Translations under genes and position numbers: made by a program
NCBI GenBank assembly: GCA_963518665.1
Contig: CAUQKR010000002.1
Location: forward strand, 27 to 64,026
Source: an uncultured Candidatus Altimarinota bacterium
GTDB taxonomy: Bacteria > Patescibacteriota > Gracilibacteria > BD1-5 > UBA6164
Reading direction: 5' to 3'
Length of the DNA: 64,000 bases
Notes under the pieces: generated by a model
The model's input: the letters and a program-made list of their open reading frames with translations, nothing else
Databases searched by the model: none
What the model was told of the DNA's origin: nothing
Shown here: positions 8,254-48,221 of the stretch, in pieces
Layout of the letters: each line of letters starts with the position of its first letter
How positions within the stretch are numbered: position 1 is the stretch's first letter

Positions 8254-10884
8254 TTATTTAGAAAATCCTTTTGGTGGATTTGATTGGATTTTTGCATCAT
8301 ATTCAATTTTCACTGAATAATAATTATCTTTATCTTCACAATTTATCAAAGGTACTTTTCTAATAAAGTTTAAATCAAATTTTTGAGCTAATTCAAAATC
8401 ATTTGTAGTTTTCCCACCTGGTAGTTTATATTCTCATTCTACAACTGCTCATCAAATTGTATTTTTTGTAAAAACAGTTCATAAAATATCTAATTTATTA
8501 AACAACTTATCATCAGAATAAGGAATTCAATTTTTATCTGCACTTCTTATTGCTCAACTTGCAAAAATAGAAGCTTTTATTGTTTTTACATTATTAGAAA
8601 TATAAATATTTCAAGTTGTTTCATTTCCTAAAACATTGTAATTATCTTTTAAAACAATAATTCATAATTTTTTACCAGAAGTATTTAAATCATTTTCTAT
8701 AAACAAGTTTCAATTTTTTACAATAATTGTTTCAAAATTTAGATTATTACCAGAAATTGTTTCAGTTTTTCATTCTATATATTTGACTCCATTTAAAATT
8801 TCTCAAGATTTCATTCATCTTGTTAGATTTGAAGCATTTTTAGAAATATTTCAAATTAAATCTGCTCTAGATAAATCTGAAATATTTGATTTTTGTCCTG
8901 TTGCTACTGCATTTCATTGAGACTGAGTTCATCAAATAACTTTTACTCATAAAGTAGTAAATTCACAACCATCAAGTTTTGCTCCAGATAAATCATACCT
9001 TGCTTTTCAGTCAAATCAATTATGTTTTATATCATAAGAAATTTTTAATTTATTTTTTGGTATTTCTAAAATAACTTTTGATAAAGCCTCAACTGCTTTT
9101 TGTCATTTTTCTATATTAAATCTCAAACTAAACCCTAAATAAGACCTAAGTACATCAAGTGAGGCAAAAACAAATTTTTTCTCAAATTTATCAATTTTAT
9201 AAATTCAAGTACTTTCATCTTTTTTAATTAAAATATTACCTTGTGCCAACTCTAAATTACCATTTTTTATAGAAGTTCCATTTACAAAATAATCTATTAA
9301 ATTAAATTTATATTTTTGAAAATCTCACAATTTTGGTTTTCATGCCCAAGCTTTTGTTCCATCATCAATAGAAATTCAACTCAATTCTACTCAAGGTGTA
9401 AATTCTTTAGAGTTTGTACTTTCTCAATTAAAAATATAATCAATTTTTCTTCCATCTTTTTTTCATTTTGCATTCCATATATTTACTAAAATAAAAAATT
9501 TTTCTTTAAATAAAAGAGGATTAAAAGAATAAAGTTCTAAAGAATTATCAGTTAATTTATTTGGAATCTTTCAATTTATAAGTTTATCTTCTTTTGAAAA
9601 TCATTCTACATCTCTCAATTCTTCAAAAATTTTTCCAGAAATATTTTTATTCACCTCATTATCAAAAGAATCTTTTATTGTAAAATTATATCTAAAATTA
9701 TCAGCTAAATTTGCAACTGCTGAATTTTTTATTGGTTCATTTTTTAAAATAGTTTTTGCAGTCAAATTTAAATTTGGAACAATACAAATTTCTACACGTT
9801 TTGGTAATCAATCAGATTCTGGGGTTGTAACAGTAGAAATATTATTTTTATCTACATATCAAGCAACTCCTAAATAAAAACAATTATCTTTATCAGCATT
9901 TTTTAAAGATCTATTTGAATCTGGGAATCTTACATTGATTATATCTCCAGTTTTACCAAAAAATGCCACATTACAATTTGGATTATTTCTTTGATCTCAT
10001 GAAGGATATCAACAATAAGTATTACCAAATCTTCAAACTTTTTTAAAAGTAGAAACTTGAAAATCTTTCATTTCTATTGGAGCTCCATCAATACTTGCTG
10101 GAGTAGTTCATATCTTTAATTTTAAAGTATCAGTTGCATAACAATAATATTTTTCACCTTCTTGAATACAATTTGATTCTCCATTTATTCAATTTTTTTC
10201 ATTTACCACAGAAATAGAATTAATTTTCCCAGGATTAAAACCTTGCTTTAAAACTATATTTATATTAGGAATATTAAAATTTCTTGCTTTTAATGGTTCA
10301 CTTGGAGGTAATTTTGTGATAGTTTTTTTAGGATCTGTTGGATCTATAGTTGTAAATTCTCATACACATTCTGAAGGATCAGAATAATCAAAAGTTCAGA
10401 AATCAATATTTGTTGAAGCTCTTCCTAAAAAGGCTTGATTTAAATGATTTCTTCATTTAGCATCTGAAACTAAAAATAATGGTGTTGTAAGTTTTAATTT
10501 TATTCTATCTAAAGGTAATCTTCAAGCTTTTGTAGTAATATCCTTTCCATTTGCAGTAAAATCATACTCTTTTGTAATATAGCCACCTTTAAACTCACCA
10601 ACTCTTACATAATCAGAAAAAAATTTTTTAGCTGGTAAATTAAACTTTTTTCTCAAATATTGTTCTATTTCATTATTACTACTAATATAATTAAAATATG
10701 GGAAAATGTCATATCAACCTCAACTATGGCTAGTTCAACAAGCTTTATTATATAATGTATAATTAGCAAAAACTTGTACATCTACTCATGCTCAATAATA
10801 AATATTATTCACTCTATCCCAATTTGCACTAACTGTTGAAGAAAATAACATTGTAGCTAAAAATATAATAAATAATTTTTTCAT
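8254..10884 (-). CDS. large secreted Cys-rich surface protein (876 aa), paralog of 12169-15096
   Basis: ATG 10884, TAA 8256-8254, length divisible by 3. Signal peptide MKKLFIIFLATMLFSSTVSA. The ORF is open only with TGA as sense. The C-terminal ~250 aa align with the paralog (GNIYISNNV, VFTKNTIGGA, LPGGK, EYDAKIQSNPPKGFSK-stop). Confidence 0.85.
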
Positions 10885-10912
10885 AAAATATTTTTTATAA
10901 ATATAAAATTTT

Positions 10913-12019
10913 TTAATAAATATCTGAAACTATAGCAGTCCAAGTATTATTTTCTGGATCTATTTTTATTTCAGCTTCTTTTTCTATCCAAATATTTTTA
11001 TTTTTATCATATAACCAATAACCATTTTTTTCATTTCAGAAAAAATCACTTTGCATCAAAGCTATATCATCTGGTGATACTTTATAAGTTATTTCAATTT
11101 TATCTCAATTTTTTACTTGTAAAATGTCTCAATTATCAGATATAAAATCTGTAAAAGCCATTCCACCACTTTCTAAATTAACAATTTTTCATTCTTTTGT
11201 AATAGCTCTCATATTTAAAGAAATATTCTCATTAGAATTTACATCTTCTCATTTTATAAAATTTACCTTTGTAGTTACATTTCATTTGAAACATTTTCCT
11301 TCATTATCAACCAAAGAACAAGTTGGAATATTTATAGAAATAGTATCTGAGTCAATTTTTGTTCATTTATCAAGAGAAATTTTCTTTTCTAAATCAAGTT
11401 TTTTAAGTTTTAATTCTCATCCTAAAAAGCTACCTTCTCAATTAAATGAGTTTAAAACTAAAAATCCATCACCATACCCATCAGCTCTACTCATAATAGA
11501 AAATTTTTCTATTCATTTCGGCCAAACAAATGGTTTTTTAAATTCTCAATTCTCAAAATTTCAAAATTTTATTCAATTTAAATAAATTGATCATTTTTTT
11601 ATTTTCTCCCCAGTTTTAGAATCTAAAATTTCTAAATTTAAATCAAAATCTCTTTTTATTTCTACTGGAAGTTTTTCAGCTTCTTTCATAAAATCTTCAA
11701 ATTCTATTCATCAATCAACTCTTTTTGTTAAATCTGCTTTTTTTGTAGAATCGATATTTTCTAAAAATTTTTTTCAAGCTTTTAATAGTGAATTTTCTGG
11801 TTCAGTATTAGAAAAAGCTAATAAATCTATATCATCAGCAGAAATATTAAATCTATTTTCTGCTATTTTTTCTTTAGATGATTCAATAGTTACCCCGTCA
11901 TAAATAGTAACTTTTTCATCTAAAATTTTTGTTCAAGTTTCCTCTTTTTGTTCTTGATTTTTTTGCCAACAAGAAGTAAGAGTTAAAACAAGTAAAAATA
12001 CCAAAATATATTTTTTCAT
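10913..12019 (-). CDS. lipoprotein (368 aa), paralog of 15121-16227
   Basis: ATG 12019. MKKYILVFLLVLTLTSC lipobox. TAA 10915-10913. Exactly the same length as its paralog. The central beta-rich segment ...GSIYLNGIKFGNFENGEF...GYGDGFLVL resembles carboxypeptidase-regulatory-like folds (weak). Confidence 0.8.
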
Positions 12020-12168: not shown

Positions 12169-15096
12169 TTATCTTGAAAATCCTTTTGGTGGATTTGATT
12201 GAACTCTTGCATCATATTCAATAGTAAATGATGGGTTATCTAATACTTTTCCATTTTCACATTTTACTGGAACTTTTCTAGTATTATTTAAATCATAAAC
12301 TCTTGATACTTCATATTTTCAAATTTTTCCACCTGGAAGTTTATTTATAATTGAACCTCAAATTGTATTTTTTGTAAATAAACTTCATTTAAATTTTAAT
12401 GCTTTATTTAATTCATGGTCTTTATAAATAATTCCATTATTATCTGCACTTATAAATCAACCATCAGCATAAATTACAGCATTTATTTCAGTAACATCTT
12501 TATTTACAAAAATATTTCATTTTCCAGAAACTTTTGTTCCTTCAGAATTAATATTTTTAGTTACATCAAAATTATCATTTAAAACAACTATTCAATAAAG
12601 ATTTTTTGAATTTGTAGCTATATCTTTTGAAATATAAATATTTCAATTTCTAACTACAAGAGTTTCAAAATCTCTAAAATAATCATTTCAAGTTACATTT
12701 ACATCACCAACTACATATTTTACTCTGTTTACAACAGCTCCAGATTTTAATCATCTTACAAGATTATTTGCAAATTTTTTAATATCTCATTTTAAATCAA
12801 GTTTTGACATATCTGTAATATTTGCAGCAGAATCTGTAGTGTTTGCTATATCTCAAGTAGCTTGCCCTCCTCAAATAAGTTTTACTCAAAGAGTTTTTAC
12901 TGTACAAGAATCAGCAGTTCTAAATTCATCTAATTTATATTTTATATCTTTTCAATTCTTATGGTAAGAAACATCTAGTCATTTTACTGAAATACTTAAT
13001 CAATTTTTAGCTTTTGAAGAATTTTGTTCTCAATCGATTCACAAAGTAATTCTAAATATATATTCTAAGCCATTTTCTCAATTAAAATTAGTAATTAGTT
13101 TAATCGGTTTTGGTTTAACAACTTCAAATAATTTGAAAACTACTCATTGTGGTAAATTAAAAAATTTTTTAAAATCATCACTTGCTTTTCCTCAAAGGAT
13201 TCAGTTAACAATACTTCCTAAAGCTCATTTATCTTTTACAATAAATTTATATAATTGTTCTCTTCCTATTTCTGGTATAGCATCCCAAGTAGTTCAGTTA
13301 TCATTTGAGATTTCAATTGATTCAGCAGCTAAAGGTTTTTTGAAATTTAAATCTCAAAGATCAAGCATTATATATCATTTTGTAACATTTCAATTTCCAT
13401 TTTTACCATTTCCTGAAGCTCCAAACTCTAATCAGTTTTTGTATCTTCCTTTTCTTTCAGATAATTGATAATTATTTGCATGTTCTGGTATTTTTACCAT
13501 AACTTTTATATTTTTATAATTTTTTGGATGTAAACTTTTTACATTAAAAGCCAAAGTAGATTTTCCAAAACTTTTAGTATCTGAATATAATTTATCTGCA
13601 TCTTCTCAAATAAATTTAACTTCTATTCAAGAAGTATAAGGTATTTCTGGCTCTATTTTATTTTTATATTCATCTTTTATAATTTGATTAATACTATATG
13701 AATCATTTCCATTTGCATATCAACCTCATTTTTTCTGTAAATTTCATTCTTTTTGAACTGTATTTGTTGGAATAATATCAACCTTAACTGATGAAGTAGC
13801 TATTGATGATCAACCAGAAATATAAGAAAAAACTATCATACAGTTTTCACATAATTCTTTTGTAATATTTTCTTTAGGTTTTTTAGTATTCTTTAATTCT
13901 ACACTAAAATCTTTAAAATATCACTCTCATTGATTTGGTATTATAGTAACTCTTCAAGTTCAAATTGTAAAATCATCACTTCTTTTTATTGAAACCTCTA
14001 CTGCTTCAACTTTTAATTCTTTTTTTCAAAATGTACCTATTATTTCATATCTAAGTTTTGAAAAATCTATTTTTCCATCTTTTGCATTTATAAAATATTT
14101 TCCTTTTTCTCAATATTGTCAGTTTATAGTTAAATTATCTGTATTAAATCTTGGTTGTTGTTTAGATAATAAAGTAGCATCATCAAATTTAAATTGATTT
14201 TCCTCTTTTCAATCAGATGTTTCAAGTCATTTACAAGTTATATCTACTGGGTGAAGTTTTATATTTGTTGTAGTATAATTATGCTGAGTATAATCCCAAT
14301 TATATAAATCTGTACAATATCCAGATTGAGGAGCAGGAGCTATTTTAGGATCTGAACAATATCTATCCCATAAATTTTTACCATCTCTAGCTCTATACAA
14401 ATCTACTTGATTTGAGCTTTTAGCAGTTCCAGAATAATTTCTCTCAAAAACTTTATAAATTATTTCTACATTATTGTTTCATGAAAATCTATACTCTAAA
14501 ACATCTAAATTATATTTATTTTTTATTCAATTAGTTAAATTTTTTTCATCTCAAAAAACCAATACTTTATCTACATTATAACTTCATAGAGTATAATAAA
14601 CTCATTTTGATGTAAATCTAAATCTTATTTCATCACTATTTGAAATCTTTATATCACCTCAAAATCTTATAGTTATTCCTTTTTTATCTAGATTTTGAAC
14701 AATAATATTATTTCATTCTTTTTTTATATTTAATCAGCTTCCAATAATTTCAAAATTATAAATTTTTCTTCTTAATTCTTTCCACTCTCAGAATTGCTTA
14801 TTTTGACAAGAATCTAATTTAAATTTACTGCATCCAGGAATAGATAAATTTAAATTTTTTCAAACAGTAGTATGTTTAATGTCTCATATTTCAATAACAC
14901 CAGGTTTTTCAATATAATATTCTCTTTCATATCTATGATGACCTCATAAATTAAATTTTGCATCTAAAAGACAAGTATCAGAATTATATTCCCATTCAAA
15001 AACATTTGTTTGATCTACATTTGCTTTTACTATTCAAGTTAATCAAATACCAAATAATAATAAACTAACAACTAAAATTTTTTTTATTTTTTTCAT
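12169..15096 (-). CDS. large secreted Cys-rich surface protein (975 aa), paralog of 8254-10884
   Basis: ATG 15096, TAA 12171-12169. Signal peptide MKKIKKILVVSLLLFGIGLTGIVKA. C-terminus ...GNIYISKDI...LFTKNTIGGS..LPGGK...EYDARVQSNPPKGFSR-stop. Confidence 0.85.
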
Positions 15097-15120
15097 TTCT
15101 TTATATTAACAAAATAATTT

Positions 15121-16227
15121 TTATTTTTCATAAATAAATTCATAATTTCATTTTTCATCTAAAATCTTCATTTTAGATTCTTTCCAAACTCAATTATCTG
15201 TTAAAACCCAAAATGGAGGAATTCCATATTTATCAAGTTCTGTTTTTCATAAATAAACATTTTTTGGAACATTTTTTAAATCCATATTAATTGCCTTATG
15301 TTGATTTTGAATAATTCAACTTCAAGTAAATCATCATTTTAAATCAAGTTCTTCTCCTTTTTCATTATAAGCTTTTATATAAGGCATTCCAAAAGTTACC
15401 ATAGAAGTCCCTGTTAGAGAACCTTTTTCATCAAATACATCTAAATTAAAAGCATTTGCATCATTATTTGTTTCATCTAAATCAAAAAAATATAATTTTA
15501 CTTTTCAGTTATACTCTTTCCCATCTTTTGTTAAATAATTATTACCATTTGTTTTAAAAGTAAAATTTTCCGTTTTTTCATAAACTCTTTGAATTGAGTT
15601 TTGTTCTTTTTCTAAATCAGCTTTTACTAATTTTGGTAAAAAACTAATTTCATCTCAAGTATTTTTTAAATTTGCTTTAAAATGGAAATCTAAATAACCT
15701 TCTTTTGAATATTTTAATCTATGCGCAAAATTTGGTTCTAAAGAAATTCTTGAAGAATTTTTAACTTCTTTTCCTCAATCAATTGTTAATTTTACATTTT
15801 CTAAATATTTTCAATCTTGATCAACTGGGGAAAAAGATGCAACAACTAAATTTTTATTCTCACAAAATTTTGGATCATTTTCTTTTTCACATAACTCCTT
15901 TCTATTTTTTAAAGCATTTTCATAATCTCAAACAAAAGATTCTAAATAAGTTGCTTTTTGTTTATTTTCGATTTTTTTATCATTTTTTAGAGTTTCTATT
16001 TTTTCATAAAGATTTTGACTTCCTGTTTTTGTGTACATTTCATTTGAAATATCAAACATAGAAATAAATCTAAAATCTTTGGGTTCTTCTTCTTCTTTTT
16101 CTACAATTTGTTCTTGATTTATTCAAGTTTGTGTTGTAGAACTAGCAGTTTCCGGTTTAACTTCCTCTTTTTGTCAGCATGAAGTTAAAAAAGTAATCAT
16201 TAAAAGCACTAAAAAATATTTTTTCAT
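15121..16227 (-). CDS. lipoprotein (368 aa), paralog of 10913-12019
   Basis: ATG 16227. MKKYFLVLLMITFLTSC lipobox. TAA 15123-15121. Confidence 0.8.
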
Positions 16228-16437: not shown

Positions 16438-16506
16438 ATAATATGAAATATTATTTTTATAATATGAAATATTATTTTTATAATATGAAATATTATTTTT
16501 ATAATA
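16438..16506 (+). repeat. 21-bp tandem repeat x3.3 (ataatatgaaatattattttt) immediately upstream of mltG
   Basis: Identical units at 16438-16458, 16459-16479 and 16480-16500, plus a partial fourth. Each unit holds the inverted repeat ataatat-gaa-atattat, and each unit junction forms TATAAT. Confidence 0.9.
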
Positions 16507-16514
16507 AAATTTTT

Positions 16515-17570
16515 ATGAGTTTTGAAAGAAATAATTTACAAAATAAAAAAAGAAAATGAACTCCTTTGGTTGCAATTTTTCTTATAATTCTATTTTTTAC
16601 TATTATCCCAATAAAAATAAGATACAATAATTTTGTAGAAAATCCTGAAATTCCAGAAAATATACAAATCACAATAAAAAAATGAGATTCCTTAAATAAT
16701 CTTTGAGAAAAAATAAAAGAACTTGATAACAGTTTTTATAGAATTTATTTATCAAATAATACTCCAGATTTAGTTTTAAAAGAATGAATTTACGAAATCA
16801 AAAAAGGTTCAAGTATAAAAGAAATTTTTGAAAGTCTAAAAAAACCGATAAACACAAGCAGCAATTTTACTATTCTTGAAGGTCGGAATATCTATGAAAT
16901 AGATAAAGTTTTAACACAAAAATGACTTATTTCAAAATGAGAATATATTTCTTACGTAACTGACAAAACAAAAATTGATTCTTGGAAAAAATATTTTGAG
17001 TTTTTAAATATAGATAATCTAGAAAGTTTAGAATGATATTTATATCCAGATACTTACAGAATAGATACTAAAAATTTTAAAATAAATAATTTAGTTCAAA
17101 AACAACTTGAAGAGTTTGAAAATCAAGTTTACAACAAAATTTTTAAATGAAAATACAATAATGAAACAATTTACGATGTAATAAATTTGGCTTCAATTGT
17201 AGAAAAAGAAGAATCTCTTATAAAAGAAAATCAAGCAACTGTAGCTTGAATCCTAAAAAAAAGATTAAATGCAAATTGGCAAATTTGAGCTGATGCAACA
17301 GTTTGTTATGCTTATCAAATTCCAACTAGTGAATGTACTCAAAAAGTCGTAAACAAATATGTTTATGAAAAAAATGAATACAACACAAGAACAAAAACTT
17401 GACTTCCTAAAACTCCTATTGCAAATCCAAGTTATACAACTATTTATAATACTTTAAATGACAATAAAACTGAGTATTGGTATTATTTACATAATTTGAC
17501 AACTGGAAAAATTTATTATGCAAAAACAAACCAAGAGCACGAGTACAATAAAGCAAATTTTATGAGATAA
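16515..17570 (+). CDS. mltG: endolytic murein transglycosylase MltG/YceG family (351 aa)
   Basis: N-terminal TM segment, then ILEGRNIYEID, LEGYLYPDTY, ASIVEKEE, YNTRTKTGLPKTPIANPS. TAA 17568-17570. Confidence 0.9.
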
Positions 17571-37340: not shown

Positions 37341-38576
37341 ATGACTGCAACAAATATTTATATTATTTTTTTGGTTTTGCTTGCTTTTGAATTTTGTGTT
37401 TCTAGTATTTTAAGTTATTTAAACAAAAAAAATTGGAAACTAACTTTGCCAGATGAAGTAAAAGAAGTTTACAATGAAGAAGAATATAAAAAATCAATGA
37501 AATACGAACAAGCAAAATACAGTTTTTGAAAAATTTCAACTTTGTTTTCTAGTTTGATTATTTTTTTACTTGTTTGATTTTGAATTTTTTGAAAAGTTTT
37601 TGATTTCATAGCAAATTTTTGATTTCATGAAATAATCACAAATCTAATTTTTTTATGAATTTTACTTTTATCTCAAACTATTTTAAACTTACCTTTTGCT
37701 TATTATAGCACTTTTGTAATAGAACAAAAATTTTGATTCAACAAATCTACAAAAAAATTATTTTTCATAGATACTATAAAAACTTTTTTACTTGGACTTG
37801 TTATCTGATGAATAATTTTTGCTTTGTTAAATTATTTTTACATACTTTCTAGCTCTTATTTTTGGCTTTTTGCTTGGATTTTTATCACACTTTTTTCTGT
37901 TTTTATGATTTTATTTCATAGTAGTTTGATTGTTCCACTGTATAATAAACAAACTCCACTTCCAGAATGAGAACTAAAAGAAAAAATCACATCTTTTGCA
38001 AAAACTATTGGTTTCACTATCACAGATATTTTTGTAATAGACTGAAGCAAAAGATCGACAAAAGCAAATGCTTATTTTTCAGGTTTTTGACCAAAAAAGA
38101 GAATAGTTTTGTTTGACACACTTATAAAAGATTTGACTCACGAAGAACTTGTAGCAGTTTTGGCTCATGAGCTTGGACACTACAAGAAAAGACATATTTT
38201 ACAAATGTTTATTTTTAGTGTAATCCAAAGCTGAATAATATTTTTTATACTTGGGCTTATTTTGGCAAATCCAGTTTTTGCAAATGCACTTGGAAGCTCT
38301 TGAAATAGCTTTATTTTATGAATTCTTGCTTTTTCTATAATTTTTTCTCCAGTTTCGATGATACTTTGAGTTCTATGAAATATTTTATCTAGAAAAAATG
38401 AGTATGAAGCTGATGAGTTTTCTGCAAAAACTTATAATTCTGAAGCTCTAAGAAATGCTCTAATCAAGCTTTCAAAAAACAACTTAGCAAACTTGACTCC
38501 ACACAAAGCTTATGAATTTTTTTATTATTCTCATCCAGGGATTTTAAAAAGATTAAAAGCATTAAAAAAAGACTAA
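37341..38576 (+). CDS. M48 family zinc metalloprotease, Ste24/CAAX-protease-like (411 aa)
   Basis: Multi-TM N-terminal half, NAYFSGFG, HELGHYKKRH, NEYEADEF. Confidence 0.88.
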
Positions 38577-38595
38577 AAATTTTTAGTCTTTTTTA
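38564..38595. terminator. bidirectional terminator
   Basis: aaaaagactaaaaa tttttagtctttttt. Confidence 0.8.
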
Positions 38596-38598
38596 GTT

Positions 38599-39361
38599 TT
38601 ATTTACATTCTTTTTTAAGTTTAAATACATCTATATATGTATCAAAACAATTAGCACGATAGGCTTTTCTAATATCTAATTTTACATTATTTGTAGAAAT
38701 ATTTAAAGTAACCATTTTTTTAGGGTTTTTATTTTCATTTGGGTAAAAAATAACTCAATTTGTTCAATTTTGATTTTTAAAATATAATTTTCAATCCTTT
38801 TCATATAAATACACATTTAAATTTACAAAAGTCTTATATTCTATACTAGGAGTTCTGTTTTTTTCTATATTATATCAAAATCTTTTTAATATTTCTTTAG
38901 TATTCATTTCCTTATTAGGGCAAGTTGTAGTTTTAGGTGATTCAGGTATAATACAAGTAGTTTTTACTACTTTTTCATCAGAAAATGCTTCTTCTCTACA
39001 TTCTTTTTTTATTTTTAAAGTATTATCTACTGCATCAAAACAATCTCCTCTATAAAAAACTCAAGTAAAATTATTATTTCTTCCCAATTTTATAATTTTA
39101 TTATTTCTTATTGTATTTCCAATATAATAACCATCTTTTTTAGTGTATATTTCAGTAATTATATCATCTACATTATTTCATACTCAATAAAAATTATTCT
39201 CATCTCCTATAATATATGATATATTTTTAGATGATAAATCACCTGTGTAAATATTACATGAGTTTTTGATTTCCACTTTTCAATCTCAAGGTTTATAACA
39301 AGTACCACTAATTAGAGTTGGGGAAGGTTCATTGTGTGGTGTTTCATAATCATTATCACTT
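38599..39361 (-). pseudogene. out-of-frame 3' continuation of the giant pilin-like gene (254 codons, no start codon of its own)
   Basis: The frame is open from 39387 to TAA 38601-38599 and has no ATG near its 5' end. It would join the upstream ORF if the G10 tract were G9 or G12. Cys-rich sequence ...GTCYKPGDGKVEIKNSCNIY...RGDCFDAVDNTLKIKKECREE...RANCFDTYIDVFKLKKECK. Confidence 0.6.
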
Positions 39362-41275
39362 TTAATTCCCCCCCCCCAAGTTTTGGCTTAAAATTCAGGT
39401 TTTTCAATCAAGGATTTTATTTGATTTTATACAACCTTCTTCTTCGTTTTTACGATATTGCGTCAAATATCAATATTGTTCTTTAAAGCACTTTCAAGTC
39501 ACAAATTTTAATCATTCTCAAGGAACATATGCTTTATCTATTGAATTTGTTTTTAGATAATAAACATAAAGTTCTCATCTTTTTAAAAAGAAAACTTTAT
39601 TTACTGCTCCAGATGCCTCATGCTTAGTAATTCAAAAATAATTATCACTTTTAGTTATATCAGAAAAATTTTTTATATTTCTATCAAATACTTTTTTTTC
39701 TAATCAATTTAAAACTTTACTATAATTTTTTTTTACAGCTTCAGGTTGATACTTCCCATCTTTACAAATATTTTGAATTGTATCTATTTTTCATCATTCA
39801 TTACTAGCATAAATTCTAAAACAATTTGCAGAATAATAAATATTATCTGGAGTTTTTACTTTTGATTCTCCAGAAAAAGTTAGTTTGATTTTATCATTAT
39901 CATTATTATATAAATCAAATTTTACTCAAGATTTTGTAACTGGTAAATCTCATTGTCTATTACCATCATTTTTAGACTTATAAAATTTTTTTCATTCATA
40001 AAATTCATCTAAAGATATTTCTAAGATTGTTCTCTCTTCAGAATCAATTAAACTTTCTGATTTCACTGTTCTTTTGATACAGTCAGAATTATAACAATCA
40101 TCTGGAAGCTCATAAACTACTACATCTGGAGCAAGCTCTCAACCTTTGTTTTCTGTTACTTTATTTAGTGGATATGGAATTTTATCTGCTGGTATATCAA
40201 CTCTAATTTTTTCAGTTGTACTTCTTCCATTTTTTATTCTGATAATAAGTCTTTCTCCAGGATTTAATGTTATAGGATTAGAATTTCTTTTTATTATATC
40301 AATTTTTCATTTAACAAGTATAAATTGTTTTTTATCAGCATTTACTCAAAAAACAGTTCATCTAACTGCTGCCGTTGTATCAGCTGTAGTTACAGAAAAA
40401 TCTGATTCAGATTCTCTTTGACTTCAAGCAAAAATCCACATACTTCCAGCATCTAAAAACATTGCTATTTTTGATTTATCATTTCATTTTACAAAAGTAA
40501 ATAAATCATTATCCCTTCAAAAAGTAAGTTTTATATCATCTTTTAAATCAAGTCTAGCTATACTTCATTCTGAAAAATATAAATCATAATATTTTTTTCA
40601 ATTCTCTTCAGTTGCTAAATCTACTATTTTTCAGATTTCTACATTATTTTTAAAAATTTTTCAATCTCTATACTCTAAAACATCTTTTTCTTCAAAAGAG
40701 TTTCAATTTTTATCTGTTGCTGTAAGCAAAACTTTTTCTGGATTATATGGAAGTTTTCCTTCTCAGTCAGCTATAAAATAAGGTCAATTATATTCTCTAA
40801 TTAAACTTATTGTTCATTTATCCCCTGTATAGTTTCCAGATATTTTTGCCAGATAATCAGCTCAGTTTTTTATAACTCAAGCAACTTCAAAAGTTTGTTT
40901 ATCTTTTAGAAGTCCGTAAGCATAATATTGGTTATTTCTTGGATCTCTTGGGATTTCACTCAAAAAATTTGATTGAGATAAAACTCCATAAACTCAGATA
41001 GATTCTGAATCTTTATCAGAAAAATTTTCATGGCTATATCATCACTCTTTGTTAAAATAATTCAAAGTTCCATTTGGAAGTGATAATTCTTTTTTTTCTG
41101 TTATTTCTGAATTTAGTGCAACTCATAAGTTAGAAAGTTGACTTTCTATTGTGGCATTTATAGTTTTTTGTTTTGAATCTCCTGAGATTTTCATCACTAC
41201 AAATCATAAAAGTATCAAAATACTTATAACTATAATTATTTCTACAAAAGAAAATCATTTTTTGTTTCTTTCCAT
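39362..41275 (-). CDS. giant type IV pilin-like protein (637 aa as written; about 891 aa if fused across the G tract)
   Basis: ATG 41275. MERNKKGFSFVEIIIVISILILLGFVV is a prepilin signal with G|FSFVE. The ORF ends 2 codons after the G10 run (TAA 39364-39362). Confidence 0.8.
39368..39377 (-). repeat. homopolymeric G10 (C10 on + strand) inside coding sequence
   Basis: Read directly: tttaattccc cccccccaag. A G/C run of this length stands out in this AT-rich window. Confidence 0.95.
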
Positions 41276-41385
41276 ACGATAAAAATAAAAAAATAATATT
41301 TCAATTAAATTATATCTATTTTTTCAAAAAACAATAAATTTTTTTAAAAATTCTATTGACAAAAAAAGAAAATATTTTTTAAAAT

Positions 41386-43859: not shown

Positions 43860-44027
43860 AAATTATTTTCGTTAAAAAATATTTAATAATAAAAAAAATG
43901 TTGCACTATAATATCTTGCAACACTTGTCAAGCATATTAGAACTAAAAAAAAAGATAAATCAATTTTTTTTTTGATTTTTTATAAAAATATATTAAAATA
44001 AAAAAAATATTTTTATAAAAAAATTTT

Positions 44028-44510
44028 ATGTTCTATATAATAGTTTTTTTACTTTTTTTAATATTTATTTACTGCAGTTTTGTTATATTTTTTAGAATGA
44101 AACTGAATGAGTTAGAATATTTTTTACAAATTTTATTTAAAAAAAGAAATTATAAAGTTACTTCACTTTATTTCGCAAGTGAAGATTTTTTAACAAAACA
44201 CGATGAGATTTTTAAAGATTTTATAAATTTAAAACAAAAAGACTTTGAAGAAACAAGACTAAATTTTGCTTTTGAAAATAAATTTAATAGCTACAAAAGA
44301 TTTGATGAAGAGTTAAATTTTATTTTCAAAATTTGTGAAACTAATTCTAGATTGAAACAAGATGAAAAATATAATTTTATAAAAGAAGAAATTTTAAAAG
44401 AAACAAAAGAAGCTTGAAAACAGTACAAAATCTATAAAATCAAATTTGACAAATACAAAAAACATCACAAAATTTCAAAATTTTTCTTAGTTTGATTATT
44501 TTTGAAATAA
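44028..44510 (+). CDS. hypothetical membrane protein (160 aa)
   Basis: Track ORF 44028-44417 extended through one TGA to TAA 44508-44510. N- and C-terminal hydrophobic segments. Confidence 0.65.
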
Positions 44511-44540
44511 AAAAAAGACTTTTTTAAAAGTCTTTTTTTT
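44510..44540. terminator. bidirectional terminator
   Basis: aaaaaaagactttttt aaaagtctttttttt. Confidence 0.8.
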
Positions 44541-45480
44541 AACTATTTTTATTTTTTAGTCAAAAATATCAAGCTGGAAGTAATAAAGCTAAAATCAAAA
44601 TAATAAACATTTCAGGTCAAGTTTGAGGAAGTTCTTCTTTTGTTTTTGATAGAGCTTCTACATTTTTCCCTACATTTGAAGAATCAAAATCTTTTGTAAC
44701 CATAACTCTTCCTGTTGAAGTTTCTTCAGTTGTTTTTGTTTCATTATTTTTTGTTTCATCTGCAGAATTTAAGTCTTTTGAAGGTTCTACAGTTACTTCA
44801 TTTTCAGTTTCTATTTCTCCTCATTTAAATTTTGCTTCGCTATCAACTCAAAATTTTATATTATTTCCAGATTTATCATAAATAGCCAAAACAGTTACTT
44901 TATATTCAACATCTTGTGTAGGAGTTGCATCAAGTTCTAGTTCTACTACATTTTTTTTATTTTCCACTGATTTTGTTTCTTTTACTTTTAGATAATCACT
45001 ACTATCTTTTACAGCTTCGATTTTAAACTCCGCATCCTTAAATTTTGAAGAATCTAAATCTTTTGAAAATTCTAAATGTAAAACTTTTTCAGAAATAAGT
45101 TTAGCTTTTGTTATAGAAAAATTTCCAACATTTGAAGTAGAGTTTCCCAAAGTTAATTCTAAAGCTTGACTTTTAAAAACTTGAGCTCAGTTTTCATCCA
45201 TTCAAATAAGGCTTAAATAGTAAGTTTTTCCTGTTTCAAGTCAGCTTAAATTATAAGAATTTGCTTCAATCATATCTGTTTCTCATAGAGATTTTTTAGC
45301 ATTTACCTCATCACTATAAGTAATTTGATAATATTTTGCTTTTGAGTCTTTATCCCAAGATAATTTTGCTCAAGTTGCAGTTTTTGTTTCTATTTTAAAA
45401 CCTTTATCAGCAAAAACTGAAAATGTAATAAAAAACAATGCTACAAAAGTAGCTACTTTTAGAATAATTCCTTTTCTCAT
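44539..45480 (-). CDS. LPXTG-anchored surface protein with FN3-like domain (313 aa)
   Basis: Signal peptide MRKGIILKVATFVALFFITFSVFA. FN3-like segment GFKIETKTATGAKLSWDKD...YYLSL. C-terminus EELPQTG-PEMFIILILALLLPAGYF-GLKNKNS-stop. LPQTG lies at 44631-44617, and its Gly is a TGA codon. Confidence 0.85.
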
Positions 45481-45572: not shown

Positions 45573-46163
45573 ATGAATAATTTTTTAACTAAAAATAAAA
45601 AGGCTTTTACACTTATAGAACTTGTAATAGTTTTAGCTTTGATTGGGCTTTTTTTACTTTTTACAAATCCTTTTAATTTCAATATTTTATCAAATGAACA
45701 AAAATCAGAAATTTTTGCAAATAAAATAATTTCTACTCTAGAAACAAGCAGAGATGAGGCAATAACAGGAAAAGCCTATAGAAAAGATGATTGAAGTTTT
45801 GAAGAAATTTTTTCTACAAATTTAGAATTTGGAAAAAATAAAAAAGTTATTGAAAATAAATATAAAAGAAAAAATAATGAAAAAATTTCTTCTTCATCTA
45901 TAAAACTACCAGATGAATGAGAAATAGAAAAAATTTATTATAATGATAATTCAAATGAAGCAACAAAAATAATTATAGGACTTTATAATAATTGAAAAAT
46001 TGAAATATTTAAAAACTGAGAAAATCTGCCAAAAATAAATTGAAAAATATTTTTTGTAGTAAATTATAAAAATGCTAGAAATAAAATAACTTTTGACCTT
46101 GTAAGCTGACTTGCTATAAAAGAAAAATGTAAAGAAACTTGTGAAATCCCAGATCAAAAATAA
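45573..46163 (+). CDS. minor pilin / pseudopilin-like protein (196 aa)
   Basis: MNNFLTKNKKAFTLIELVIVLALIGLFLL is a prepilin signal. Track ORF extended through TGA to TAA 46161-46163. Confidence 0.8.
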
Positions 46164-46889: not shown

Positions 46890-48221
46890 TTATCATCAAA
46901 GAACAGAAAGTAATTCTTCTAAAGAAGTCTCTCCAAGCAAAACTTTTATAAGTCAATCTTGCTTTATTGGAACCATTCAATCTCAAACTGCTTGAATTTC
47001 AAGCTGAATTTTTGAAGAATTATTTAAAATAAGTTTTTCCAAACCTTCTGTCATTTCCAAAATTTCATAAAATCAAGTTCTTCATTTATATCCTGTACTA
47101 TTACAATGAGGACAACCTCATTCTTTTGCTTTATAAAGATCAATTTTTTCTTTATTTTTAATATATTTTCAAATATTTTTTATAAAAAAATCTCTTACTT
47201 TATCTGAGGCTTCATATTTTTCCTTGCAATGAACACAAAGTTTTCTAGCAAGTCTTTGTGAAATAATCATTCTAAGAGAAGAAGTTATCAAAAGTGGGTC
47301 AATTCCTAGATTTACAATTCTTTGAATAGTATGAACAGCAGAGTTTGTATGGATTGTAGAAAAAACAATATGTCAAGTTATACTTGCTTCAACTGCAAGT
47401 TTTGCAGTTTCTTCGTCTCTTATTTCTCAAACCATTATAATATCTGGATCTTGTCTAAGTAAACTTCTAAGTCCTCTAGCAAAAGTAAAATTTATATCAG
47501 GATTTATTTGTGTATGATTTACTCATTTTATTCTATATTCTACCGGATCTTCAAGTGTAGAAATATTATTTTGCTCTGGATCAAACTGAGATAAAAGTCC
47601 AAAAAGTGTAGTAGATTTTCAAGAACCTGTAGGTCAAACAGCCAAAATCATTCAATAATTATCTTTTAAATGTTTTTCTATTTTTACCATATTATAAGGC
47701 ATTATTCACAAATCTTGAAGTTTTAGTGCATCTGCCTCTTTTTTCAAAATTCTGATAACACATTTTTCTCAATAAATAGTTGGTATAACAGAAACTCTCA
47801 TATCAACTGTTTTTCAAGCAAAAAGTTTATAAGAAATTTTTCAGTCTTGAGGTAACCTATGCTCATCTATTCTCAAAAAAGACATAATTTTTATTCTAGC
47901 CAAAATCGGGTCTTTTTGCAATAAGCTAAAAGATTTATAGTGAACAAAAGCTCAATCTATTCTAAATCTAATCAAAACATCTTTATCGTTTGGCTCTATA
48001 TGAATATCTGAAGCTCTTTTAGTCAAAGCATTCAAAAAAATATCATTTACAAGTCAAATAATAGCAGAATCTTCAGTTTTATTTCCATAATATTTTAAAT
48101 TTAAATCTGAAGATGTAGCTCATTCTTGTTTTGAAACAACTCAAAAAAGCTCATCAACAGATGATTCTGCTTCTGATTCTTTTTTTCAATTTCAAACAAT
48201 TTTTTTCAAATTAAAATCCAT
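46890..48221 (-). CDS. pilB: type IV pilus assembly / type II secretion ATPase, PilB/GspE family (443 aa)
   Basis: Walker A GPTGSGKST (two of its Gly are TGA), [24 protein letters not shown], and the tetracysteine CVHC...CPHC. Confidence 0.92.

Follow-up and report, generated by a model that had tools for sequence, protein, structure and literature searches.

A poly-G tract that probably acts as a slippage-driven switch within a large modular pilin-like gene of a Gracilibacteria bacterium

The stretch of DNA considered here, called the window throughout, comprises 64,000 nucleotides of contig CAUQKR010000002.1 (assembly GCA_963518665.1) of an uncultured Candidatus Altimarinota bacterium of the Gracilibacteria, and carries on its minus strand a large gene of prepilin type that is interrupted, as assembled, at a run of ten G. 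We consider it likely, with a probability of about 0.78, that this tract is a genuine hypermutable switch, driven by slippage, within one pilin-like gene of about 891 codons, the outer end of whose product would be toggled. Judged on the features that could be examined in sequence, namely an over-long tract, the logic of the reading frames and polymorphism among near-identical genomes, its assignment to the homopolymer contingency loci is well supported. The three elements on which the argument turns are the following:

39368..39377, minus strand: homopolymeric G10 tract, the proposed switch, here at an out-of-frame length; the orthologous tract is G6 to G10 elsewhere.
39362..41275, minus strand: proximal open reading frame (ORF) as written, 637 amino acids (aa) plus TAA 39364-39362, from translation in genetic code 25; its exact product is on record.
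38599..39387, minus strand: distal reading frame, +1 relative to the proximal ORF and running from TAA 39390-39388 to TAA 38601-38599; it encodes the toggled C-terminal part of 254 aa, with two Cys-rich beta modules in an AlphaFold2 (AF2) model, and is read through in relatives.

On the plus strand the tract is a C10 at 39368-39377, and it is the sole run of at least six G or C in the window, the runner-up being a single C5 at 46511. With a G+C content of 23.7%, base composition leads one to expect 1.4e-4 runs of ten or more G or C in the window, and at ten nucleotides the tract exceeds the length of about 7 nt from which a homopolymer in coding sequence is taken as over-long. GGG accounts for 3.2% of the Gly codons in the window's long ORFs (TGA 771, GGA 187, GGT 156, GGG 37, GGC 8), so that a run of GGG codons goes strongly against the bias of this genome. 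At the junction the minus strand reads ...AAC TTG GGG GGG GGG AAT TAA..., and translation in code 25 from the ATG at 41275 gives 637 aa with ten G and 654 aa with eleven, while G9 and G12 give 891 and 892 aa respectively, both ending at TAA 38601-38599. A change of one G in either direction can thus toggle the gene between a full-length and a truncated product, and the database products of the variants agree with these translations. The tract forms codons 634-636 (Gly-Gly-Gly) of 891, 71% along the gene, and the out-of-frame state removes the last 254 residues, leaving the pilin core, the FecR domain and two modules in the middle of the protein. Upstream, TAA 39390-39388 bounds the distal frame; the earliest start-like codon in this frame is a GTG at 39276, 37 codons in, at which no Shine-Dalgarno-like sequence was found, and its first ATG lies at 38907. 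An earlier reading of the window, made from the letters and the ORFs alone (the sequence-only reading), had claimed a G10 run in coding DNA within a G/C-poor window, an ORF from 41275 that stops two codons past the tract, a further 254 codons opened by G9 or G12 and a distal frame with no start of its own, and all of this holds.

The gene can be read only with TGA as Gly (code 25), as it has 46 in-frame TGA codons; the ORF listing made with table 11 is unusable for it, and ORFs were re-called in code 25. The prepilin cleavage motif needs Gly at -1 and that codon is TGA, so reading TGA as Gly yields MERNKKG/FSFVEIIIV... (the slash marks the cleavage site). Where TGA is replaced between paired alleles, its counterpart is GGA, GGT or GGG in 11 cases and TGG in none, which favours code 25 over code 4, and in ribosomal protein L11 (30756-31226, minus strand) four of the five TGA codons align with conserved Gly residues of what we take to be the Escherichia coli L11 sequence. 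Of the 1159 Gly codons counted in long ORFs of the window, 771 are TGA, and the name under which NCBI lists distant homologues, 'Candidatus Gracilibacteria', is in line with code 25. Databases mostly give the proteins of this lineage in code 4, with Trp at TGA, and identities and models are distorted by it. Both NCBI and ENA have the exact 637-aa product of the window in this spelling (P0088), on contigs of up to 155,651 bp; a contig look-up with P0088 returned no encoding contig, although the protein is in the protein collection.

The orthologous tract was read in 18 further contigs, all of them consensus assemblies (L014 is the same contig as L005), and lengths of G6, G7, G8, G9 and G10 were found across four allele backgrounds, given here with the predicted state of the full-length frame:

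Window-type allele (...CAA AAC TT-Gn-AATTAAAAGT): G10 in the window, off.
Window-type allele: G9 in L001, on.
Window-type allele: G7 in L015, L016 and L019, off, the product ending in ...LGGN.
Window-type allele: G6 in L002, an in-frame length, but with a CAA>TAA nonsense change three codons upstream.
Allele with AATT shortened to AAT: G7 in L006, L007 and L008, on.
Allele with AATT shortened to AAT: G6 in L005 and L017, off, in the third frame.
Allele with AATT shortened to AAT: G8 in L018, off, the product ending in ...LGGE.
L003-type allele (...CAA GAA AT-Gn-AATT): G9 in L003, L009 and L010, on.
L003-type allele: G10 in L004, off.
L012-type allele (...AT-Gn-AACT): G9 in L012 and L013, on.

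In L011 the tract is interrupted (GGGGTGGG), and several further alleles, judged from protein sequences, have no tract at this site (P0002 with ...KLWESK, P0006 with ...NLGEIK). One rule fits every case: the gene is in frame if the number of G plus the number of T that follow, taken modulo 3, equals 2, which makes G6, G9 and G12 the in-frame lengths before AATT and G7 and G10 those before AAT; other lengths terminate translation 1-18 codons past the tract. No other G or C run of at least six was found in any of these loci.

The most telling comparisons are those between contigs that are otherwise identical. L004 (G10) and L009 (G9) differ by one G as their sole difference over 7878 bp, and the same is true of L004 and L010 over 5447 bp; L005 (G6) and L006 (G7) likewise differ by a single G over 8013 bp, as do L017 and L006 over 3.2 kb. 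The window (G10) and L001 (G9) are 99.98% identical over 9854 bp, the tract and one single-nucleotide polymorphism at 39555 being the differences. Three allele backgrounds therefore contain ON and OFF versions one G apart, and the tract is polymorphic among genomes that are otherwise identical or nearly so. As controls we considered the A/T runs of at least 7 nt, of which there are 34-42 per locus and none of which differs within the pairs. An A9 inside the pilin gene itself (39726-39734, codons KKN) does not vary in length among the 18 sequences that include it, and an intergenic A10 plus T9 (43945-43973, between secE and the gene at 44028) is constant in all 10 loci that cover it.

OFF products occur on multiple contigs (P0099 on three, P0091 on three and the distal fragment P0089 on eight), drawn from ENA MEGAHIT assemblies, ENA scaffolds and Logan. 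Within one pipeline, distinct BioSamples give different lengths: SAMEA10740154 has G9, SAMEA10740343 has G10, SAMEA10740478 has G8, SAMEA10740063 and SAMEA10740879 have G7 in the AAT context and SAMEA10740169 has G7 in the AATT context. Searching the literature by accession number returned no paper, and an oral or host-associated habitat is no more than a guess based on how the samples are named. Homopolymer miscalls in short reads should be rare at lengths of G6, G7 and G8. Given variation at these lengths, its recurrence in several pipelines and the stability of the A/T controls, we regard the length polymorphism at this locus as real at the level of the assembled sequences. The view of the sequence-only reading that the gene looks toggled by tract length is supported, with five lengths and ON/OFF pairs in three backgrounds. 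A scan of genome contigs and JGI metagenome contigs for the exact flanks (TGAATTTTAAG-N{8,30}-AATTAAAAGTGATAAT) gave no match, nor did a scan of genome contigs for a degenerate prepilin N-terminus.

Using the product fused at G9 as query, we collected eleven homologues of 883-908 aa that cover 95-100% of it at 64-95% identity, and these continue through the junction in one frame; the 95% identity of one of them, P0001, reflects only the spelling of Trp for Gly at TGA. Gene order is shared as well: SecE, NusG, an unknown gene, GreA, DUF212, the pilin-like gene, a convergent M48 peptidase, an unknown gene, CysS and S15. The proximal and distal pieces are, on this comparison of sequences, one gene of about 891 codons, and it is the relatives that settle it. 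Comparison with the orthologous locus had been proposed as a check on the view that the two pieces form a single gene of about 891 aa, and it upholds that view, the relatives being fused, in the same neighbourhood and variable in tract length. The converse, two separate genes, is rejected, as the distal frame has no start and the relatives are fused; relatives with an independently started distal gene, which the sequence-only reading had named as grounds for refutation, were thus not encountered.

The transcriptional context is given by one further element:

38565..38594, minus strand: AT-rich hairpin with a perfect 13-bp stem and a U7 run after it, in the gap between the convergent genes for the pilin and the M48 peptidase; folding gives a free energy of -11.3 kcal/mol and z -3.7, and 0 of 200 shuffles are as good.

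This hairpin is the probable terminator of the whole gene, bidirectional and common to the convergent M48 peptidase gene. It follows directly after the distal stop, and folding of 39300-39400 found no comparable structure after the G10-state stop or near the tract (z -0.47), so that the two pieces look like one transcription unit. The consensus terminator scan, which requires three G-C pairs, missed the hairpin, which was revealed by folding, and a sigma-70 scan was uninformative in such AT-rich DNA (28 promoter-like sites against 21.8 expected). In some assemblies the gene is called from a TTG that lies 29 codons further upstream (MSIEFLKKF...), and the frame is open in the window too (41276-41362, minus strand). 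By the logic of the prepilin leader, the ATG at 41275 is probably the real start and the TTG extension a gene-calling artefact.

The product appears from its sequence to be a large modular type IV pilin-like surface protein, the clues to its exposure being the prepilin leader, the pilin fold, a Cys-rich hypervariable C-terminus and a PilB-type ATPase encoded nearby. Its recognisable domains, and the two genes of pilus machinery that were found on scanning a few of the window's ORFs, are:

41093..41275, minus strand: prepilin leader MERNKKG/FSFVE and hydrophobic alpha1 helix, aa 1-61; weak Pfam N_methyl match, match of the family profile and AF2 helix.
40313..40570, minus strand: FecR-like beta-sandwich domain, aa 236-321; Pfam PF04773, E 1.9e-8, 35 bits against a cut-off of 24, and Foldseek matches.
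46890..48221, minus strand: PilB/GspE-type assembly ATPase; Pfam T2SSE, E 7e-120.
45573..46163, plus strand: small type IV pilin-like gene, 196 aa; Pfam N_methyl, E 1.3e-6, above the cut-off.

The leader, MERNKKG/FSFVEIIIVISILILLGFVV, has the make-up of a class III leader, that is a basic leader, Gly (here encoded by TGA) at -1, Phe or Met at +1, Glu at +5 and about 20 hydrophobic residues. The N_methyl match is weak (E 0.007, below cut-off); the profile built from 86 members of the family finds solved type IV pilins and GspG over aa 1-61 at E values of 3.8e-13 to 2e-5. In the AF2 model a helix at 10-61 (predicted local distance difference test, pLDDT, about 90) precedes beta head strands at 68-147, with pLDDT of 80-94 over helix and strands, and a beta sandwich at 199-358, and this predicted arrangement, a long alpha1 helix on a beta-sheet head, is that expected of a type IV pilin. 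The model was made on the database spelling P0001 with 86 sequences, in which Trp for Gly at 46 TGA sites probably lowers confidence; at full length it is confident for residues 1-360 only, residues 361-891 being poorly modelled. Foldseek matches the FecR-like sandwich to C-terminal domains of anti-sigma factors (4m0h, 4m0n, 6ovk; E about 1e-5), and the assignment to PF04773 denotes domain membership only, with no implied role in sigma/anti-sigma signalling.

Beyond the FecR-like domain, four C-F-x(13-18)-C motifs (residues 485-504, 596-615, 745-759 and 876-890), each closing a beta-rich stretch, suggest four repeated modules, among which sequence similarity is low. The codons of the tract fall between motifs 2 and 3, within a stretch (583-675) with almost no predicted secondary structure and pLDDT of about 30; the tract therefore probably sits in a linker before the last two modules, as far as the model can be trusted, since low pLDDT may also reflect a shallow alignment. 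The toggled distal part has a mean pLDDT of 66.6 in its own AF2 model and no fold match in the PDB (best E 0.26), and phmmer with the distal fragment P0089 (38602-39276) gave no match among 1.84 billion cluster representatives. Despite this null result, full-length relatives are present in the 90% collection. It seems that the module of P0089 is confined to a very narrow lineage, or that its representative at 50% clustering has a different C-terminus.

The outer part of the protein differs markedly from its N-terminus in the way it varies among strains, as seen in sliding identity and in the ratio of nonsynonymous to synonymous substitution rates (dN/dS):

38602..40325, minus strand: hypervariable mosaic part, codons about 318-891, which includes the tract; 45-93% identity to L003, with flanks at 98-100%.
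Codons 1-330: dN/dS 0.09-0.28, dS 0.03-0.09.
Codons 331-450: dN/dS 0.65-0.94.
Codons 451-620: dN/dS 1.1-2.0.
Codons 621-900: dN/dS 1.0-1.9, dS up to 0.30.

By these ratios the N-terminus and the FecR-like domain are under purifying selection. Modules occur in shuffled combinations among the alleles: the window almost matches L006 in codons 621-900 and differs from it in 331-620, and L003 and L009, identical in codons 451-900, differ in 331-450. A diversity-generating retroelement was also considered as a possible source of the variation at the C-terminus; the units that are shuffled are entire modules. Such a pattern, a conserved anchor with old, recombining and fast-evolving outer modules, suits an exposed interaction surface. 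The distal part also has many invariant columns, Cys positions among them, and in-frame lengths are the commonest state in the protein cluster listings. The same tract length can be off in one context and on in another, G7 before AATT and G7 before AAT both being present in closely related backgrounds; a 1-nt deletion adjoining the tract restored the frame in one lineage (net -3 relative to G9 before AATT), and this compensating deletion argues for selection for the full-length product. The tract has been kept in four diverged allele families though GGG is so rare a Gly codon here. Truncations that do not involve the tract were also seen: the nonsense change in L002 (2816-2870), a 1-nt deletion in L011 (about 4800) some 25 codons before the interrupted tract, and a frameshift at about codon 524 in P0101. 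These three events are independent and all lie in the distal 40% of the gene, none in codons 1-520. The window has a second strain-variable spot, at 45115-45414 in a gene on the minus strand (44539-45480) whose product, a secreted protein with an Fn3 domain, has an LPQTG sortase-type anchor at its end; the spot shows 85.7% identity and 41 gap columns relative to L003, with neighbours at 98-100%.

Several points weigh against a switch and bear on three other explanations. One is an artefact, in which this genome truly has G9 and an intact gene, a homopolymer miscall has added the extra G and nothing is toggled here. Long G/C homopolymers are error-prone in sequencing, and the G10 of the window has no clearly independent support, P0088 being found on two contigs only (NCBI and ENA) that possibly represent the same assembly; the near-twin L001 has G9, itself at only about 4.9x coverage. 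Some of the contigs may moreover be re-assemblies of the same runs, so that independent samples are fewer than contigs, and OFF loci were sampled deliberately, so that the proportions of ON to OFF are not population frequencies. However, differences of one G recur in three allele backgrounds, at G6, G7 and G8 too, the OFF states are reproduced across pipelines, the A9, A10 and T9 runs of the same loci are constant, and the locus would stay polymorphic even if the call in the window were wrong. We therefore hold it unlikely that the extra G is an error. Somewhat less unlikely, and still improbable, is a mutational hotspot with no switch function, in which the distal modules are under relaxed selection and being lost, the tract is just the place at which frameshifts arise most readily, and the OFF forms are dead ends. 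A dN/dS of about 1 or higher over codons 451-900 speaks for it, since averaged values near 1 in the distal part are also expected under relaxed constraint, as do the distal module with no detectable relatives and the non-tract truncations, which hint that loss of the distal modules is tolerated or sometimes favoured, in a pattern that comprises three events and was noticed post hoc. Against this, most alleles have an uninterrupted frame of about 890 codons in a genome in which a random one meets a stop within tens of codons, distal columns including the Cys positions are invariant, one lineage carries the compensating deletion, and an in-frame tract has been retained in four diverged allele families despite the bias towards AT and TGA-encoded Gly. 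The OFF variants are, in addition, identical to ON variants elsewhere in their sequence, which indicates that they are very recent and not accumulating further damage.

Recoding is the third explanation: the G10 allele would yield the full-length protein as its main route by +1 ribosomal frameshifting on GGG or by slippage of RNA polymerase. Homopolymer runs can cause transcriptional slippage, and the rare GGG codons would let the tRNA re-pair perfectly in the +1 frame; low-level slippage or read-through on ten G may indeed occur. As the main route it is very improbable, because the out-of-frame arrangement is not conserved, most relatives being in frame with varying tract length, because the 0-frame stop is one codon away from the run and not adjacent to the slip site, and because 39300-39400 contains no significant RNA structure that could serve as a downstream stimulatory element. 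Programmed frameshifting in particular is rejected, given that relatives do not share the out-of-frame arrangement, which is retained among relatives at programmed frameshift sites.

In the switch that we favour, slipped-strand mispairing in replication would add or remove one or two G at a rate far above background mutation, a mechanism proposed because the tract is the sole difference between otherwise identical loci. In-frame lengths would give the long pilin with four modules, and other lengths a short form consisting of the leader, the alpha1 helix, the pilin head, the FecR-like domain and modules 1-2, with modules 3-4 lost. With its OFF length of G10, the cell represented by the window would make a 637-aa pilin that lacks the last two Cys-rich hypervariable modules. 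Since the tract lies 71% along the gene, the out-of-frame state is probably a change of form and not a silencing of the gene. Its adaptive role might be altered binding to a partner cell or surface, or escape from phage or from host antibody. More tentatively, and at somewhat less than even odds, we suggest that this is the first documented contingency locus in the Candidate Phyla Radiation (CPR, or Patescibacteria), and an isoform switch: a poly-G tract in the linker ahead of the last two modules, maintained by selection in no fewer than four mosaic allele families despite extreme AT bias and the preference for TGA as Gly codon, would let a lineage change between a long form with a lineage-specific, hypervariable Cys-rich tip and a short form without it.

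Phase variation of pilC in Neisseria reportedly arises by frameshifts in a G tract of this gene for a pilus-associated adhesin. Both systems have a G homopolymer in the coding sequence of a protein tied to type IV pili and adhesion, its length shifting the frame and differing between strains. In contrast, the pilC tract lies in the signal-peptide region and its OFF state yields no protein, whereas the tract described here occupies codons 634-636 of 891 and its OFF state would yield a 637-aa protein; the product here, which has a class III leader, is further a pilin-like subunit in its own right, in a CPR bacterium using code 25. In Campylobacter jejuni and Helicobacter pylori, which are AT-rich, rare G/C homopolymers are concentrated in genes for surface structures, vary between and within strains and first appear as apparent frameshifts in assemblies. 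The present locus resembles theirs in being a rare G/C homopolymer of an AT-rich genome that shows as an apparent assembly frameshift, but their loci are mostly glycosyltransferase, flagellar, capsule and restriction-modification genes, and here a single tract was found in the 64 kb and the flanks. PilB and PilC of Streptococcus sanguinis are reportedly modular type IV pilins with von Willebrand factor A or lectin modules. They share with the present protein a pilin N-terminal module with functional modules added to it, in a bacterium without outer membrane; the modules grafted here are by contrast a FecR-like sandwich and orphan Cys-rich beta modules, and we know of no phase-variable tract described for the S. 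sanguinis pilins.

Within the same candidate phylum, a marine Gracilibacterium has a hypervariable gene with in-frame 9-nt repeats coding for PTD units, and many unusually large GspG/pilin-like proteins were noted in the same work (Sieber et al. 2019, PMC6851277). That gene is likewise a case of hypervariation by simple sequence repeats in a probable surface protein, but its repeats change the length of the protein and not the frame, and it has neither homopolymer nor ON/OFF logic. We found no report of homopolymer phase variation in the full-text literature on Gracilibacteria, Saccharibacteria and CPR/Patescibacteria, whose coverage was incomplete, so that 'unreported' is provisional. The mechanism itself is classical, and apparently unreported in CPR bacteria; the evidence is unusually clear for an organism known from metagenomes alone. 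The locus departs from the classical ones in where its tract lies, which would make it a switch of C-terminal modules, in its protein, a giant modular pilin with a FecR-like domain and orphan modules, and in its organism, a CPR bacterium using code 25.

Two other features of the window are recorded here. A 21-nt unit, ATGAAATATTATTTTTATAAT, is present three times in tandem at 16443-16505 (plus strand), at the 5' end of the ORF 16443-17570 (three times MKYYFYN), and may be an in-frame repeat or a set of ambiguous start sites. Two tandem paralogous pairs, at 8254-12019 and 12169-16227 (both minus strand), each consist of a large secreted protein followed by a lipoprotein of 368 aa, the large proteins being of 876 and 975 aa with similar C-termini.

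For the study of these genomes, the locus implies that G/C-homopolymer frameshifts in AT-rich metagenome-assembled genomes using code 25 should not be silently repaired or called pseudogenes, and that gene callers using code 4 or 11 conceal such loci. The tract can also be followed without culture, in existing metagenomes, by its length in individual reads, between people and households and over time. If the reading as an isoform switch is true, non-tract truncations would cluster in the distal 40% of the gene because the short form is selected for. Gracilibacteria and other members of the CPR have hardly been cultivated, if at all, and are thought to live attached to other cells, by means of attachment proteins that are mostly unknown; a protein with a pilin anchor and a hypervariable mosaic tip, whose gene would also carry a slippage switch, is a strong candidate for a determinant of attachment or host interaction in these organisms.

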